This document shows, piece by piece, positions 794 through 11,867 of a stretch of 11,867 nucleotides of DNA. Made by a program: the position numbers and the translations under genes. The notes under the pieces were generated by a model that was given only the letters and a program-made list of their open reading frames with translations, did no database searches and was not told the origin of the DNA. Numbering within the stretch: the stretch's first letter is position 1; every line of letters begins with the position of its first letter. The DNA comes from a virus. Taxonomy: Duplodnaviria; Heunggongvirae; Uroviricota; Caudoviricetes. The stretch is from the IMG/VR virus record IMGVR_UViG_2740892230_000035; one strand, 5' to 3'.

Positions 794-808
794 TTACCTT
801 AAAGGTAT
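794..808. promoter_or_regulatory. Operator-like dyad TTACCTTAAAGGTAT upstream of int, overlapping a candidate -10 (TATACT 806-811)
   Basis: Matches the TTACC-N5-GGTAA motif family; shares the 12-mer ACCTTAAAGGTA with the site at 6975-6989. Flanked by the 8-bp inverted repeat GACGGTAT (788-795) / ATACCGTC (815-822). Confidence 0.45.
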
Positions 809-2946: not shown

Positions 2947-3238
2947 AAACCACCCCACAACATCCTATGCCGCTATAGTCGCCACGGCGAAGGCCGTTAC
3001 CTTTTGTGATACATTGGTCCCTGCGAACCGCGATCCTTGCACGCTCAACATCACCAGAAGCAACATCCATACACTGAAGCCAAAGGTGAGCGGCAATGCG
3101 GAACTGCCCTTTTTTCTCTCTTTCAATCGCGCGTTTTTCGATCTCTATCGCCGCAGGAGTAACGGCGACAATCTTTGACGGACTGCGCATTGAAACCTTG
3201 TTCATGTGATATTTTTCAAGTCGGCTTAACTTTCTCAC
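2939..3238 (-). CDS. Hypothetical protein (99 aa), first gene of the methyltransferase cassette
   Basis: GTG start at 3238 preceded by AGAGGG. Stop codon (2941..2939) overlaps the methyltransferase start by 8 nt. No family recognised. Confidence 0.5.
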   Translation of the reverse strand: MRKLSRLEKYHMNKVSMRSPSKIVAVTPAAIEIEKRAIEREKKGQFRIAAHLWLQCMDVASGDVERARIAVRRDQCITKGNGLRRGDYSGIGCCGVVYD

Positions 3239-3347
3239 TTAATCCAACCCTCTCTGAAAATTAATGCCAGCAGATAAAGCCATGCTGAAACAGAGGCCAG
3301 GAATAAGTACCATCCTGACCATTTGCTCCAGTGCCTTAGCAGCGCAC

Positions 3348-3596
3348 TCATGCAGCGTTGCTCACAGGACGATATACACGTTGCTGAACAGGAGGTTTTT
3401 TACCCTGGAACTCTGCCGGGCTTGCTGCCTGACGTTCATCAAGCCAACGCTCAACTTCATCACGGTTCCATGCGCAGCGTTTATCGGTGATATACCAGCG
3501 TTTAGGAAATTCCCCTGCGCGCTCCATACGGTCGATAGTGCTCCATGACAGTGGCACCACCGCCAGGAGTTCCTTCTTACCTAATGCACCTTTCAT
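3348..3596 (-). CDS. AlpA-family excisionase / prophage transcriptional regulator (Xis-like)
   Basis: 82-aa product with LLAVVPLSWSTIDRMERAGEFPKRWYI...WNRDEVERWLDE, a winged-helix pattern typical of AlpA/Xis proteins. RBS GAGAGG 6 nt upstream of ATG. Confidence 0.8.
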   Translation of the reverse strand: MKGALGKKELLAVVPLSWSTIDRMERAGEFPKRWYITDKRCAWNRDEVERWLDERQAASPAEFQGKKPPVQQRVYRPVSNAA

Positions 3597-3645
3597 AAAT
3601 ACCTCTCTTGGTTGCAGTGCGGCGCGCGTGGCGCCGCGGTGGTGG

Positions 3646-4527
3646 TTACATAGATGTTTCGTTTAATTCTTCCCGACGAACGCTGTAAACGTCGGTGGCT
3701 TTTGCCAGCAGTTCGTCATCATCTGAAAGTTTTTGTGCAATGTATTTGTAAGCCTTATCCAGTTCGGAGACAGTGCTGTAATTCATCGCTGCGCTGGTAA
3801 AGGCCATCAGCATTTCTTCTGGCTCACGGCTATCCGCTTTACGCGTTTGCTCATCAGGCTTTTTCACTGATTTAGCGTTGATCAGACTGTTCATTCCCGC
3901 AGCCGTAGTCATTTGCGGAGTAATGTCTCGCTCAACGCGCGGTGCCGTTTCCTGTAATTCGTCAGGGGTGTAAACACCGAGAAGTACATCAGGAGCGTGC
4001 AGGCGAGCCCATCGTTTCGTGCAAAGATAGGCGAGCTGCTGGCGCGGATCCTGTTCCCACAATGGAGAGTTACGCACTCCGGCTTGCGCCATACTGATGG
4101 TAAGCTCACGTGGTTCTGCTTCTCCTTTAAGAACTGCTGACACAGTTACCGTCAGATTCGGTGATTTATCTGTTTTGCCGTTAACATTCGACCAGTCACC
4201 GCTCCAGCGATAATTCAGGCGTGTCGCCAGCAGGCTGGAAGAGGATACGACCGCGTTTACCAACTGTGCTTCGTAGCCTAACGTTCCGTTTACCACATGC
4301 GTTTTCTGCGCCACGGCGAACGGGTTCATTCCCCACTGTGCCGCCTGCATGGTCACCGCCAGGCAATCGGCAGGTTTGCCTTCAAGATGTTTCGGTACAG
4401 TCGCTTTGCTTTGTGACATCAACTCCGCGAAACGCACCAGTTGATTCATGCCCTCGGGGCTGAAGATTGCCGCAGCAGTGCCTACAGTTGCGCCTGGTTG
4501 TGATGTGATTGCGATATCATTGCTCAT
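3646..4527 (-). CDS. RecT/Bet-family single-strand annealing recombinase
   Basis: 293-aa product; GMNPFAVAQKTHVV...GYEAQL and the C-terminal ERDITP segment resemble lambda Bet/RecT as I recall them. ATG overlaps the upstream exonuclease stop as ATGA (4527..4524). Confidence 0.8.
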   Translation of the reverse strand: MSNDIAITSQPGATVGTAAAIFSPEGMNQLVRFAELMSQSKATVPKHLEGKPADCLAVTMQAAQWGMNPFAVAQKTHVVNGTLGYEAQLVNAVVSSSSLLATRLNYRWSGDWSNVNGKTDKSPNLTVTVSAVLKGEAEPRELTISMAQAGVRNSPLWEQDPRQQLAYLCTKRWARLHAPDVLLGVYTPDELQETAPRVERDITPQMTTAAGMNSLINAKSVKKPDEQTRKADSREPEEMLMAFTSAAMNYSTVSELDKAYKYIAQKLSDDDELLAKATDVYSVRREELNETSM

Positions 4528-5643: not shown

Positions 5644-5796
5644 TCAGCCCTCCCATATCTCGTTATCGTTGGCCACATCGCGAGCTTCTTTGCTGACGAA
5701 AGCCCACTTAATGCCTTCCTGTAAGGTGCGGAACTTCCAGCTCATGAATCCGCATGCAGTAACGCAGTACCAACCGTTGATGATTTTCCACTGCAT
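5644..5796 (-). CDS. Small hypothetical protein (50 aa), first ORF of the leftward early operon; below the supplied ORF-track length cutoff
   Basis: ATG at 5796..5794 with GAGG 9 nt upstream. Product MQWKIINGWYCVTACGFMSWKFRTLQEGIKWAFVSKEARDVANDNEIWEG. TGA stop sits 2 nt before the next ATG. Confidence 0.4.
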   Translation of the reverse strand: MQWKIINGWYCVTACGFMSWKFRTLQEGIKWAFVSKEARDVANDNEIWEG

Positions 5797-5815
5797 AACT
5801 TGTTACCTCGGCTTG

Positions 5816-5892
5816 TTACCGTTTAGGTAATGATTATGCGTATCTGGTTTGATGTCAATAGATATGAGTTAAAAAAATTACCTGTAAGGTAA
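5816..5892 (-). promoter_or_regulatory. Left operator/promoter region (OL/pL analogue): two 15-bp dyads flanking a candidate leftward promoter
   Basis: TTACCGTTTAGGTAA (5816-5830) and TTACCTGTAAGGTAA (5878-5892). On the minus strand a consensus TTGACA (-35; complement of 5854-5859) lies between them, with a CATAAT-like -10 at roughly 15-bp spacing. Confidence 0.55.
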
Positions 5893-5902
5893 TTGTGCGG
5901 GC

Positions 5903-5929
5903 AATAAAAAAGCCGCCATGAGGCGGCTT
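5903..5929 (-). terminator. Rho-independent terminator downstream of the repressor gene
   Basis: Minus-strand hairpin AAGCCGCC-TCAT-GGCGGCTT followed by TTTTTTATT; 21 nt after the repressor stop codon. Confidence 0.65.
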
Positions 5930-5949
5930 ACTTACTGAAAACTATAGTT

Positions 5950-6534
5950 TTATTGTTTGCTTTTTTCGTTCTGGCTGATGACAAATTCAATGTAACTTTC
6001 GATCTTTGCCTTCTCTGTTTCAGGTAACAATGCGTAGCGCGAGCGGTCATAGTTGATAGTTGCAGGGTCATGCGGGTGAATCAGTAGTTCATATCCGTGA
6101 CGCCCGAATGCTGATGCAACATTCTCCAGGGTGGAAATGGAAACGCTGACCTCATTGTTTAACAGGCGGCTAATTGTCACCTGGGCGACGCCGGATGCGC
6201 GGTGAAGTTTTCCCTGTGTTGAAAGGTCGCGGCTTTCGCTCATCCAGCGTTCCAGGTTGTGAGCCGCCAGCTGACCAATGTCGCTTGGTCCGACAGGCTG
6301 AACCCCCTCCTGAGAAAGCGAGCGATCGATATCAAGCCAGTTACGGGGTTTATTGGCGGCAGCTTCAATTTTTCGCGCAACCTGGTCGCCGATAACCTTC
6401 TTGCCAAGAGCCCAGCGGTTTACCAGATTTGCCTGAGTTCCAAGTTTTTCTGCCATCCGCGTCTGAACACCATTGAATTCACGGTCGATCAAGTCGTTGA
6501 GATTTTGCCTGCGGACGTCCTGGATACTTTTCAT
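5950..6534 (-). CDS. Prophage repressor (CI-like) with two HTH-like segments and no recognisable S24 autocleavage domain
   Basis: 194 aa. N-terminal HTH-like segment (QTRMAEKLGTQANLVNRWALGKK) and a second (LHRASGVAQVTISRLLNNE). Divergent from a Cro-like gene across an operator cluster. No obvious RBS; possibly leaderless or weakly initiated. Confidence 0.8.
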   Translation of the reverse strand: MKSIQDVRRQNLNDLIDREFNGVQTRMAEKLGTQANLVNRWALGKKVIGDQVARKIEAAANKPRNWLDIDRSLSQEGVQPVGPSDIGQLAAHNLERWMSESRDLSTQGKLHRASGVAQVTISRLLNNEVSVSISTLENVASAFGRHGYELLIHPHDPATINYDRSRYALLPETEKAKIESYIEFVISQNEKSKQ

Positions 6535-6589
6535 TTTCTGGAGAATCGCCTCATATATGAATCAGTAGATGATTCAATTTAAAGCAATA

Positions 6590-6652
6590 TTACCCAACAG
6601 GTAAATGCACCCCATAGGTAACTATCCTTGATTTTTGTTACCTTATGGGTGA
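6590..6652. promoter_or_regulatory. Right operator region (OR analogue) with three 15-bp dyad sites and divergent promoters
   Basis: TTACCCAACAGGTAA (6590-6604), GCACCCCATAGGTAA (6607-6621), TTACCTTATGGGTGA (6638-6652). Candidate rightward promoter: -35 TTGTTA (6635-6640), 17-bp spacer, -10 TATTAT (6658-6663), overlapped by the third site. Confidence 0.6.
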
Positions 6653-6688
6653 ATATTTATTATCTGAAATAAATATCAGGCAATAGCT

Positions 6689-6919
6689 ATGAGCGATAAC
6701 GGACATTTCGATTTCAAAAAGCACTGGCTTGCACTTACTCCGGATGAGCGTGAAGCCTTCGCACAGGAAGCCGGAACGACGAGTCACTATATCCAGACTC
6801 ACTTAACAGGTAAGCGCAAAATGCCAGGTAAAGTATTGATGAATGGGCTTTTTAAAGCCTGTAAAACAAGACAATGGCTGCGCTCAAAAGCAGAACTGGC
6901 ATACTTCTTCTACTCATGA
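6689..6919 (+). CDS. Cro-like small HTH DNA-binding regulator
   Basis: 76-aa ORF divergent from the repressor. HTH-like segment EAFAQEAGTTSHYIQTHLTGKRK. Followed by a terminator. Confidence 0.7.
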   Translation: MSDNGHFDFKKHWLALTPDEREAFAQEAGTTSHYIQTHLTGKRKMPGKVLMNGLFKACKTRQWLRSKAELAYFFYS

Positions 6920-6940
6920 TATCCAGCCACAAACCTCTGT

Positions 6941-6965
6941 AGACCGCCATCCGGCGGTCTTTTCA
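6941..6965 (+). terminator. Rho-independent terminator after the cro-like gene (tR1 analogue)
   Basis: Hairpin GACCGCC-ATCC-GGCGGTC followed by TTTT. Confidence 0.6.
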
Positions 6966-6974
6966 TATCTATTC

Positions 6975-6989
6975 GCACCTTAAAGGTAA
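6975..6989. promoter_or_regulatory. Operator-like dyad GCACCTTAAAGGTAA between the terminator and the replication genes
   Basis: Motif-family member; shares ACCTTAAAGGTA with the site upstream of int. A TTGATC -35-like hexamer lies at 7007-7012. Confidence 0.4.
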
Positions 6990-7067
6990 TAAAAAACCAA
7001 ATCTGGTTGATCAAATTTTCCAATTGTGCAAAATAGCCAATATCAATAACAAAAAGGGGCGGAAAAA

Positions 7068-7280
7068 TTGAAGATAGTAACCAGAATGGAGGCCGCAAAA
7101 GCCGGGTTAAATCGCTATTTCACAGGAAAGCGGTGCCGTCACGGCCATCTCTCTGAAAGGTATGTTCTGAACGGAACATGTGTTGAATGTGCAATGAATA
7201 GCGCCAACCGCCATCGTAATGAATTTGCTTGTGCACTAAAGAGTGCAAGAGGGGAAACCTATGGCAAGCAGCTGGATTAA
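7068..7280 (+). CDS. Small putative zinc-binding protein (C-x-H-x-H ... C-x2-C) in the position lambda cII occupies
   Basis: TTG start at 7068 with AGGGG 8 nt upstream (in-frame ATG alternative at 7086). Product contains GKRCRHGHLSERYVLNGTCVEC. Overlaps the next gene start by 20 nt. Confidence 0.5.
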   Translation: MKIVTRMEAAKAGLNRYFTGKRCRHGHLSERYVLNGTCVECAMNSANRHRNEFACALKSARGETYGKQLD

Positions 7281-8085
7281 GGTTGAAGTTATCACTCCTG
7301 ATAAACCTGAAATTTTTCAGATAGCAGAAATTCTGGGTATTGATCCAGATGCTGTTCTTGGAAAGCTGGTTCGTATATGGGCATGGGCTGACCAGCAAAC
7401 AATAGACGGTAACGCTGGCAGCGTTACAAAAGGAGTACTTGATAGACTCGCTTTTATTACAGGATTTGCTGACGCCCTCATTAGCGTCGGATGGCTTGCT
7501 TATCATGACGGCAAACTAATTCTTCCAAACTTTGAGCGACACAATGGAGAATCATCGAAAAAACGTGCACTTACGAATAGAAGAGTGGCAGAGCATCGAA
7601 AACGAGTAACGCAAAAAGTAACGCCAACAGCGTTACAAAAGGAGTTACCAGAGGAAGAGGAAGATATATATAAAACCCCACACATAGCACACGCGCGCGA
7701 GAGTGATCCGACCAGTGAAGCGAACGGTACGCCGTTGCAGGTGGCAGAACCTGCATTTCTGGATGGCCTGAGTGAACCTATTGGGAAATTTCCGATGACC
7801 GATGGCTGGCATCCATCGCCGGATTTTCGACGGCGTGCTGCGCTGTGGGGAACGGCCCTGCCGGAACCGGAATTTACACCTGCTGAACTTGCTGCATTCC
7901 GGGATTACTGGATGGCTGAGGGCAAAGTGTTCACGCAGGTTCAGTGGGAACAAAAATTCGCCAGGCACGTAAATCATATCAGGGGAAAATCAAAAAACGT
8001 CGGGAAAAGCGATGAGCTTGACTGGAATAACACTGACTGGATAGAAGGGGTGTGGGATGAAATCAACTCCAGAACTTCTCAATGA
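7261..8085 (+). CDS. Phage replication initiation protein / replisome organizer (O analogue), probably with a DnaT-like C-terminal domain
   Basis: ATG at 7261 with AGAGGGG RBS. Sits immediately upstream of, and overlapping, the P-like gene. Contains an internal iteron cluster and an acidic linker (EEEED). Family assignment is from recall. Confidence 0.75.
   Translation: MASSWIKVEVITPDKPEIFQIAEILGIDPDAVLGKLVRIWAWADQQTIDGNAGSVTKGVLDRLAFITGFADALISVGWLAYHDGKLILPNFERHNGESSKKRALTNRRVAEHRKRVTQKVTPTALQKELPEEEEDIYKTPHIAHARESDPTSEANGTPLQVAEPAFLDGLSEPIGKFPMTDGWHPSPDFRRRAALWGTALPEPEFTPAELAAFRDYWMAEGKVFTQVQWEQKFARHVNHIRGKSKNVGKSDELDWNNTDWIEGVWDEINSRTSQ
7406..7680. repeat. Candidate replication origin inside the organizer gene: iteron-like repeats plus an AT-rich tract
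   Basis: Perfect 19-bp palindrome GTAACGCTGGCAGCGTTAC (7409-7427). 18-bp direct repeat CAGCGTTACAAAAGGAGT at 7419-7436 and 7628-7645, in different reading frames. Further GTAACGC copies at 7606-7612 and 7618-7624 and GCGTTAC at 7630-7636. AT-rich GAAGATATATATAAAA at 7661-7676. Confidence 0.5.
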
Positions 8086-8870: not shown

Positions 8871-8947
8871 TTACCTGATGGGTAACAAAATATTCTTATA
8901 TCTATTGATTTTGTGCCTTATGTGGTTTTTAATTACCTTAGAGGTAA
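8871..8947 (+). promoter_or_regulatory. Internal operator-flanked promoter upstream of the DUF1064-like gene
   Basis: TTACCTGATGGGTAA (8871-8885) and TTACCTTAGAGGTAA (8933-8947) bracket -35 TTGATT (8905-8910), a 17-bp spacer, and -10 TTTAAT (8928-8933). The second dyad overlaps the -10 and the RBS of the downstream gene. Confidence 0.55.
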
Positions 8948-9356: not shown

Positions 9357-9963
9357 ATGGACGGTAATATCAAAGGGTTAGTTTCCGCCGGGCATGAGAT
9401 GGCTTCGGAACTGAAAGCTGAATGTGGTGCCGTTGATATGCGCAGCGTGGCAAAGCTGATCAGCGATTTGGCAACGCAACTGGAAGTGCAACTGGCGCGT
9501 GCTAATGCGCTGGCCGAAGACCAGCAGAAAGCGATTGAGTCAATTAAGCAGGCTGATGCGGCTGTTAAGTTGGCACACGAGAAGTTTTCGGCTCTGGCGG
9601 CGGAGAATGCGGGGCTGAATAAATTTATCGCACAGAGTTGCTACGTGTTTGATGGCGAGCAGGATGAGCTATCTGATGCGTATATCTGCGCAACAGATGG
9701 AGGGATGCCGCAAATTCCAGCCACCGATGCTTTTCTGGCTGAAATTCGTGCGGAGGCTCGCAACGAGGGGATTAACTATACCGCAAGCCGTCTTGCTGCT
9801 GCTTNNNNNNNNNNCACCAGCCACCGATGCTTTCCTGGCTGAAGTCCGGGCGCAGGGTGTGGAGATGTTCTCAGAAAAATTCGGAGGTGGCACTCCGCTA
9901 TCCAATATGGTCAAAGAGGTTGCTGCTGATTTTGCGGCGAAGCTTCGCAAAGGAGGTGAGTAG
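9357..9963 (+). CDS. ead/Ea22-like family protein with coiled-coil N-terminus; interrupted by the N-run at 9805-9814 (apparent frame shift across the gap)
   Basis: Two ORF-track pieces (9357-9842 and 9649-9963) share the repeat PATDAFLAEIRAE / PATDAFLAEVRAQ on either side of the gap. Ends ...AAKLRKGGE. Confidence 0.65.
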
Positions 9964-10173
9964 TGCGTGTGGCATGTATCGGCTTGTTNNNNNNNNNNCC
10001 ACGGATTTATCAATAAGTCTTTACGTGAAGTTTTCGACGTTACGCGCATGATTCTGTCAGCAAAAGAAGAGTTAGCTAATGAATCGCATCCGATTGATGG
10101 CCTGTCCGGTGAATATGCAGAGAAATCCCTTGAAGAATGGGCGGAACGGCTTCGCAAAGGAGGCAACCAGTGA
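9963..10173 (+). CDS. Small Ea22-region ORF (about 68 aa) interrupted by the N-run at 9989-9998; start uncertain
   Basis: GTG at 9963 preceded by AGGAGG; ends ...WAERLRKGGNQ, echoing the upstream gene end. Frame across the gap cannot be verified. Confidence 0.35.
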
Positions 10174-10577
10174 GCAAGATTGACTATCAGGCACTGCGTG
10201 AAGCGGCAGAGAAAGCCGGTGAAGATAAGTGGCAGGCTAAAAAAATAAATGGTGATTTTTTCGTTATTCGTCACGGTAGTTATACAAGACAGCATGGCTA
10301 CACATCGTATCAACCCATTGCGGAGATTGATTGTAAGCCAGTCCGGGATTTTGTTGCCAAGGCTAATCCGGCTACCGTGCTGGAATTACTGGATGAACTG
10401 GAAGCAGCAAAAAAGCGCATTGCAGAACTGGAAGCGCGGGAAATACTGCTCCCGGAACGTAGCAGCATGCTTCATCGAACAGATTTTCACGATGATTACC
10501 AAACGGTAATGGCATACAAAGTTTCTGAAGTCATCGATGCAATCCGCGCTACTGGCATTCGCATCAAAGGAGAGTGA
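10170..10577 (+). CDS. ead/Ea22-like family protein
   Basis: GTG start at 10170 with AGGAGG 7 nt upstream. Product MSKIDYQALREAAEKAGEDKW...ANPATVLELLDELEAAKKRIAELEA matches the conserved Ea22-like pattern as I recall it. Confidence 0.65.
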   Translation: MSKIDYQALREAAEKAGEDKWQAKKINGDFFVIRHGSYTRQHGYTSYQPIAEIDCKPVRDFVAKANPATVLELLDELEAAKKRIAELEAREILLPERSSMLHRTDFHDDYQTVMAYKVSEVIDAIRATGIRIKGE

Positions 10578-10614
10578 GATGAACGNNNNNNNNNNAACGC
10601 AGGAGAACAAAACG

Positions 10615-11496: not shown

Positions 11497-11867
11497 TCAC
11501 TATTACCAAAGAGCGACTGCTGACAATCAAGCAGTGGCGCGAAACATACGGACCGGGTAGCAACGTTGTACTGCCAGCAGAAGAAGCGGAAGAACTGGCA
11601 CGAATTGCTCTGGCATCGCTGGAAGCAGAGCCTGTAAACCAAACTTACAACTTACCAGAATTAATCGAAGGCATGGAAGTTTCCATTGATGTAAGCACTT
11701 GTGATGCTGATTTAGGTAATCGCTATTTCGGCACCGTCACCGAGGCGTTAGAACTTGATACGGCCAAGAATGGTTACATCCTCCTAGTTCAGGACGCAGA
11801 GCCAAACTTCGATGTAAATGGCAACTCTCCGGGAACTCCGGATAGTTGGATAAGCTGTAGTGAGCGA
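11493..11867 (+). CDS. Hypothetical phage protein, 5' partial (runs off the window end); possibly the N-terminal part of a DUF551-type protein
   Basis: ATG at 11493 overlaps the upstream stop as ATGA. Open frame of 125 codons to the window edge: MITITKERLLTIKQWRETYGPGSNVVLPAEEAEELARIALASLEAEPV... Not in the ORF track because it has no stop in the window. Confidence 0.6.
   Translation, partial: MITITKERLLTIKQWRETYGPGSNVVLPAEEAEELARIALASLEAEPVNQTYNLPELIEGMEVSIDVSTCDADLGNRYFGTVTEALELDTAKNGYILLVQDAEPNFDVNGNSPGTPDSWISCSER

Follow-up and report, generated by a model that had tools for sequence, protein, structure and literature searches.

When a temperate phage carries a repressor with no visible means of cutting itself, how is the prophage induced? 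The gene rep raises this question. It lies on a viral stretch of 11,867 nucleotides, called the window, and it encodes a helix-turn-helix (HTH) protein of 194 residues (Table 1). On the sequence evidence set out below, we put at about 0.88 the probability that this gene, F365_gp10, is the immunity or lysogeny repressor Rep of an epsilon15/phiV10-like prophage, an orthologue of the Rep of Salmonella phage SPC32H, and that it is switched by an antirepressor, Ant, under the control of LexA.

The source of the window could be established directly. Positions 5700-7300 are 100% identical to Escherichia phage TL-2011b (NC_019445), a temperate podovirus of the phiV10/epsilon15 type (Uetakevirus) with a 44.8-kb genome, derived from an EHEC O103:H25 outbreak strain. 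A window coordinate equals the TL-2011b record coordinate plus 644, and F365_gp10 is the name of rep in that record. The window is a scaffold with four joins of 10 N (651-660, 9805-9814, 9989-9998 and 10586-10595). Its positions 1-650 correspond to 42953-43596, at the far end of the TL-2011b record, and the stretch 9757-10595 was assembled from short fragments, so open reading frames there are unreliable.

What kind of protein is Rep? With phmmer, residues 1-190 of its 194 align with PDB chain 5D50_A, named 'Repressor' (E 6.6e-42), and residues 89-190 with 5D4Z (E 3.7e-20), whose construct is Rep(92-198). By their entry titles, 5D4Z and 5D50 hold SPC32H Rep alone and with its antirepressor. 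The window protein and SPC32H Rep (KC911856) are equal in length and 42% identical from end to end (BLASTP, E 5e-53); identity is 54% in the N-terminal module, 31% in the middle and 50% at the C-terminus. An AF2 model built with 25 homologues (pLDDT 77) consists of a four-helix N-terminal domain (pLDDT 81-90), a disordered linker at 74-83, a five-helix second domain at 83-151 and a C-terminal helix at 172-193. Foldseek searches with this model placed 5d50 and 5d4z on top, followed by generic XRE HTH proteins. The label 'VapI' in one record, which would make Rep the antidote of a toxin-antitoxin pair, is ruled out by synteny, operators and PDB homology.

The first-pass annotation, which gave no strand for the gene, had described two HTH-like segments, and both are present. 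Pfam HTH_3 matches Rep in two stretches, best at 106-147 (E 1.2e-9, 38.5 bits against a gathering cutoff of 23), a Cro/YdaS-type HTH matches residues 21-61 (Pfam, E 3e-4), and 1-84 and 92-152 each have matches of their own among PHROG repressor families. The second segment nevertheless corresponds to a dimerisation domain in the solved homologue, and a third, C-terminal module had been missed. According to a re-analysis citing Kim 2016, SPC32H Rep begins with an N-terminal DNA-binding domain, continues with a middle dimerisation domain (MDD) and closes with the CAD, through which it tetramerises and is bound by Ant. We assign the second segment of the window protein to the MDD because the SPC32H structure places DNA binding at the N-terminus and dimerisation in the middle. 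In the C-terminal module Y162, L170 and F184 are invariant across the 25 homologues; the AF2 monomer models this module with only partial confidence. No similarity between the N-terminal and middle halves of Rep is detectable, so we reject a recent internal duplication of the HTH.

Could both segments bind DNA all the same, each Rep chain reading two motifs? The second segment keeps the strong canonical HTH_3 signature just described, and Gln118 and Arg123 of its would-be recognition helix are invariant. We nonetheless consider this very unlikely: besides the assignment of the equivalent SPC32H domain to dimerisation, only one type of palindrome is enriched in these phages, and the remaining conserved blocks in the spacer between rep and the neighbouring cro-like gene coincide with promoter-like elements. 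Rep is better read as a protein with one DNA-binding domain, at its N-terminus.

The first-pass annotation had also remarked that Rep lacks the cleavage site and S24 region of LexA-like repressors, and had proposed profile searches for HTH_XRE and Peptidase_S24 domains; these bear it out. Against the clear HTH_3 match, Peptidase_S24 gives none even at E<=1 (Pfam), and among the 194 residues of Rep there is no cysteine and neither an Ala-Gly nor a Cys-Gly. An S24 domain is likewise found in 0 of 86 database homologues of Rep, nearly all of about 194 residues and from Enterobacteriaceae. The idea that Rep is inactivated through a cryptic site by RecA-stimulated self-cleavage, as lambda CI and LexA are, draws on the general expectation for lambdoid repressors and on nothing else. 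It is contradicted by the Pfam scan and the dipeptide count, and the C-terminal part of Rep fits a helical structure for dimerisation and tetramerisation, not the beta-rich S24 fold. A review, moreover, states that repressors of this class are inhibited by Ant through protein-protein interaction. We therefore reject self-cleavage as wholly improbable.

If Rep is an immunity repressor, the surrounding DNA should hold its operators. A scan for TTACC-N5-GGTAA, with one mismatch allowed, yields 7 sites in the window where 0.23 would be expected; TL-2011b has 14 (0.82 expected) and SPC32H has 18 (0.65 expected). The epsilon15 record already marks many such palindromes, as ATTACC-N5-GGTAAT, as repressor-binding. 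Three sites, one of them degenerate, lie in the rep-cro spacer, and two bracket a candidate leftward promoter (Table 1). The positions of the spacer sites are kept in TL-2011b, Tyrion, a Klebsiella phage, epsilon15 and SPC32H, and the sites equivalent to O_L carry the feature 'protein_bind repressor, lysogeny' in the epsilon15 record. The cro-like gene corresponds in position to SPC32H_042 and to epsilon15 gp39.

Table 1. Features of the rep locus and its partner gene; coordinates are those of the window unless a record is named.
Feature	Position	Strand	Basis
rep, 194-aa lysogeny repressor	5950..6534	-	ORF with ATG start; 100% identity to TL-2011b; PDB, BLASTP and Foldseek matches
Rep residues 1-70, N-terminal Cro/CI-type HTH, DNA-binding domain by homology	6325..6534	-	Pfam, PHROG, AF2, 54% identity
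Rep residues ~84-150, five-helix domain with the second HTH_3-like segment, equivalent to the MDD of SPC32H Rep	6085..6285	-	Pfam, 5D4Z alignment, AF2, 31% identity
Rep residues ~151-194, C-terminal module (CAD), tetramerisation and Ant binding by homology	5953..6084	-	5D4Z/5D50 alignment, 50% identity
Intrinsic terminator directly after rep	5910..5929	-	Eight-pair GC-rich stem, then T run
Candidate operator O_L, TTACCTGTAAGGTAA, on the upstream side of candidate P_L	5878..5892		Palindrome scan
Candidate P_L, TTGACA-17-AATCAT	5858-5830	-	Consensus scan; would drive the exo/recT operon
Candidate operator O_L, TTACCGTTTAGGTAA, over the -10/start of candidate P_L	5816..5830		Palindrome scan; 62 bp from the other O_L
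Candidate operator O_R1, TTACCCAACAGGTAA, nearest rep	6590..6604		Palindrome scan; position kept in five phages
Candidate operator O_R2, GCACCCCATAGGTAA, degenerate left half-site	6607..6621		Palindrome perfect at the aligned position in epsilon15, SPC32H and the Klebsiella phage
Candidate operator O_R3, TTACCTTATGGGTGA	6638..6652		Palindrome scan; overlaps the promoter-like site 6635-6663
Candidate P_R, TTGTTA-17-TATTAT, ahead of the cro-like gene	6635..6663	+	Consensus scan alone
cro-like 76-aa regulator, divergent from rep	6689..6919	+	phrog_35 'transcriptional repressor', E 5.6e-13
Rep-type palindrome pair, 62 bp apart, 3' of the replication genes	8871-8885, 8933-8947		Palindrome scan
Rep-type palindrome with a single mismatch, immediately 5' of the integrase gene	794..808		Palindrome scan
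Ant homologue gp47, 85 aa	TL-2011b record 35263-35520	-	88% identity to SPC32H Ant

In TL-2011b and SPC32H alike, two pairs of sites are spaced by exactly 62 bp, which would fit a tetramer bound to two sites at once. The pair beyond the replication genes recurs in SPC32H at 35972/36034, and epsilon15 has an annotated site at 35906-35922. The palindrome just ahead of the integrase gene, TTACCTTAAAGGTAT, has an identical counterpart upstream of SPC32H int. Further palindromes of this type occur in the TL-2011b record at 11590, 11608, 14819, 33333, 34385, 34478 and 35597. The TL-2011b sites thus spread beyond the immunity region: they also precede int and the genes for terminase and head, and adjoin the ant promoter.

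One more reading frame of this region deserves mention. Between the terminator of the cro-like gene (6941-6960) and the replication genes, about where lambda has cII, a 70-residue frame on the plus strand (7068-7280) matches phrog_1081, a family of unknown function; its CxH...CxxC pattern suggests a zinc ribbon.

How is Rep itself expressed? Its start codon is correctly placed, because M1-K2-S3-I4 is invariant across the 25 homologues and the crystallised homologue begins at the same point. That the gene has no obvious Shine-Dalgarno (SD) sequence, as noted in the first pass, holds: in the 25 nucleotides preceding the ATG, CATATATGAGGCGATTCTCCAGAAA, the sole SD-like element is a GAGG 14 nucleotides from the start, and an SD at canonical spacing is absent from all five aligned phages, TL-2011b and its four relatives. 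It is missing from all five though the sequence just 5' of the ATG is not conserved. Selection for a repressor that is translated weakly or without an SD may explain this conserved absence.

It does not follow that the messenger begins at the A of the ATG, as that of lambda cI does from P_RM, and the earlier proposal of leaderless translation is weakly disfavoured. Apart from the shared lack of a well-spaced SD, what speaks for it is a TACAAT hexamer ending 4 nucleotides ahead of the ATG in epsilon15 and SPC32H, and because of it a leaderless or near-leaderless transcript is conceivable in those two phages. The equivalent positions in TL-2011b and Tyrion, however, read CTCCAG, so that TL-2011b has no -10-like hexamer placed for a start at the ATG. 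A standard scan of the rep-cro spacer finds no promoter on the rep strand. The hexamer pairs found on that strand are weak, and the best -10/-35-like ones end 15-41 nucleotides 5' of the ATG; the sequence blocks that all five phages share (TTTACC ... TTTAAATT) are at least 40 nucleotides upstream. A leaderless rep messenger is thus unlikely.

If Rep is removed by a partner, where is the partner encoded? Neither an Ant homologue (tblastn) nor a LexA box is found in the window, and a switch contained within it is rejected. The first-pass annotation had suspected an antirepressor, or another mechanism, encoded elsewhere and had suggested searching the remaining prophage for it, a suspicion that proved sound: the TL-2011b protein gp47 matches 5D50_E, 'Anti-repressor protein', with E 1.3e-47 (Table 1). 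Its gene lies about 29 kb from rep. In SPC32H, ant (86 residues) is divergent from the tailspike gene, and gp47 holds the same place in TL-2011b. About 20 nucleotides 5' of the ant ATG stands a LexA-box-like sequence, TACTGTATATTTATACAGTT, which departs from the 20-mer consensus at two positions. No other such site occurs in the 44.8-kb TL-2011b genome, and an equivalent box is present in SPC32H and epsilon15. The two genes also travel together: a full-length Rep is present in 36 phage records and Ant in 35 of these, and no record has Ant without Rep.

How would these parts work as a switch? In a lysogen, a Rep tetramer would sit on the palindromes through its N-terminal HTH and hold off the lytic promoters. 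On DNA damage LexA would leave the ant promoter, and the small tetrameric Ant would then bind the C-terminal part of Rep, split the tetramer into dimers and free Rep from DNA, so that induction would be SOS-dependent and reversible and would involve no proteolysis of the repressor. Kim & Ryu (2013, J Virol) and Kim et al. (2016, PNAS) are reported to have found SPC32H Rep uncleaved during SOS; a point mutation in the LexA box reportedly makes ant constitutive in SPC32N and gives clear plaques.

In secondary literature, this family of repressors is inactivated by the binding of Ant after LexA has been cleaved, and not by cleavage of the repressor. A review has Ant made after LexA self-cleavage and inhibiting the repressor by protein-protein interaction. 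Citing papers describe SPC32H Rep as binding DNA as a tetramer and Ant as a tetramer; Ant is said there to induce a conformational trap, with the DNA-binding surface of Rep not occluded.

Is the small Ant the sole inactivator? Perhaps not, since TL-2011b encodes two further proteins with an Ant-like module. One, gp42 (TL-2011b record 31300-32244, plus strand), follows an Arc-like gene and joins a P22_AR_N domain to an Ant-like C-terminus; the other, gp46 (TL-2011b record 33420-34115, minus strand), joins the same kind of C-terminus to a Bro-N domain. Over their C-terminal ~80 residues they are 44% (gp42) and 40% (gp46) identical to the small Ant, and these C-termini match phrog_450, the Ant family, at E 1e-35 and 1e-36 respectively. 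Pfam finds no match to P22_AR_C in gp42. Fusions of the module to Bro-N or P22_AR_N recur in many E. coli, Enterobacter and Klebsiella phages of the group.

It is a tentative possibility that gp42 and gp46 inactivate Rep through these C-termini, beside the small Ant or instead of it, giving SOS-independent or feed-forward induction. Their likeness to Ant and the nature of their N-terminal domains argue for it, as do the Rep-type palindromes that flank gp46. Their exclusive association with Rep-encoding genomes suggests that the fused modules target Rep: tblastn with the gp42 module (E<=1e-3) hits only 34 of 50,697 phage records, all 34 of which encode Rep, and in this collection neither the free nor the fused form of the module is seen outside genomes with Rep. 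On the other hand, Salmonella members of the group, SPC32H included, lack the fusions yet are inducible. The phiV10 counterpart of gp46 (record 3071-3750) looks split into PhiV10p23 and PhiV10p22, and this copy may be frameshifted and decaying. Since the small Ant is a tetramer, the fused module could also serve oligomerisation alone. That Rep is a hub for several antirepressor inputs, the small LexA-controlled Ant plus the fused modules, is accordingly put forward here with reserve.

Were the fused modules to bind the C-terminus of Rep, induction could proceed without SOS, in a form controlled by Arc or as a feed-forward loop controlled by Rep, and cross-induction between related prophages would be possible. 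On that view the small Ant would represent, in free-standing form, the domain by which large modular antirepressors recognise their target.

The established route, from LexA through a small Ant to Rep, is already known from SPC32H, where it has been studied genetically and structurally. The practical value of the present identification therefore lies in annotation and little in discovery, the Rep/Ant switch of epsilon15-like phages having been characterised before and the present orthologue showing all the features that go with it. RefSeq and the TL-2011b record call Rep a 'helix-turn-helix domain-containing protein'; the records of TL-2011b, phiV10 and epsilon15 enter the Ant orthologue as a 'hypothetical protein', and phrog_450 is labelled 'unknown function' in PHROGs despite the crystal structure of 5D50 chain E. 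This type of prophage is common: the rep region is present in 561 of 5426 complete E. coli genomes (~10%), those of EHEC and APEC strains included, and the ant region in 531. From the route that runs from LexA through Ant to Rep, one would expect these prophages to be SOS-inducible, and related ones may engage in cross-talk.

How does the system compare with others? Its nearest relative is the SPC32H switch (PDB 5D4Z, 5D50), which it resembles in the length of Rep, the order of its modules and homology over the full protein. The same small Ant (88% identity) lies beside the tailspike gene, behind the same LexA box; the operator half-sites TTACC/GGTAA are the same, and so is the gene order, with a leftward exo-recT operon, rep, the cro-like gene and the replication genes. 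The hosts differ, Salmonella for SPC32H and E. coli for TL-2011b, and the two Rep proteins diverge most in the middle domain (31%). Unlike in SPC32H, O_R2 is degenerate in TL-2011b, and TL-2011b has the two Ant-module fusions and the Arc-like gene that SPC32H lacks. Within the epsilon15-like group, the repressor of phiV10 is 98.5% and that of epsilon15 43% identical to TL-2011b Rep. The epsilon15 protein (AAO06101.1) is labelled 'repressor' in AY150271.2, with a note that cites HHpred 5d50_A; the same record leaves the three sites in the rep-cro spacer unmarked and its Ant homologue, gp19, hypothetical.

The same logic, a non-cleavable repressor and a LexA-repressed antirepressor, is attributed in a review to the Gifsy antirepressors (Lemire et al. 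2011) and to Tum of phage 186 (Shearwin et al. 1998), where induction likewise proceeds by protein-protein sequestration. Those phages are siphoviruses and myoviruses, other phage types, and are likened to ours by logic. A 2013 paper on SPC32H reportedly describes its Ant as structurally distinct from the Gifsy and Tum antirepressors.

The immI region of P22 (Ant, Arc, Mnt) offers a different parallel. In TL-2011b, too, an Arc-like gene precedes one for an Ant carrying a P22_AR_N domain, and the P22 antirepressor acts by binding the repressor, as in Rep/Ant. The P22 repressor C2 has an S24 domain and is cleavable with RecA. A P22 ant mutant, according to a review, is still SOS-inducible. TL-2011b Rep, unlike C2, has no S24 domain, and the C-terminus of gp42 is a module like SPC32H Ant.

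With lambda CI and LexA, finally, Rep has in common an N-terminal HTH and a C-terminal oligomerisation region, and its locus shares with that of lambda a divergent immunity region of the P_L/P_R type, three operators in the right-hand spacer and the SOS response. It differs from them in having neither an S24 domain, nor a cleavage dipeptide, nor a Ser/Lys dyad region. The SOS signal that CI and LexA receive through their own cleavage would reach Rep indirectly, through the control of ant by LexA.
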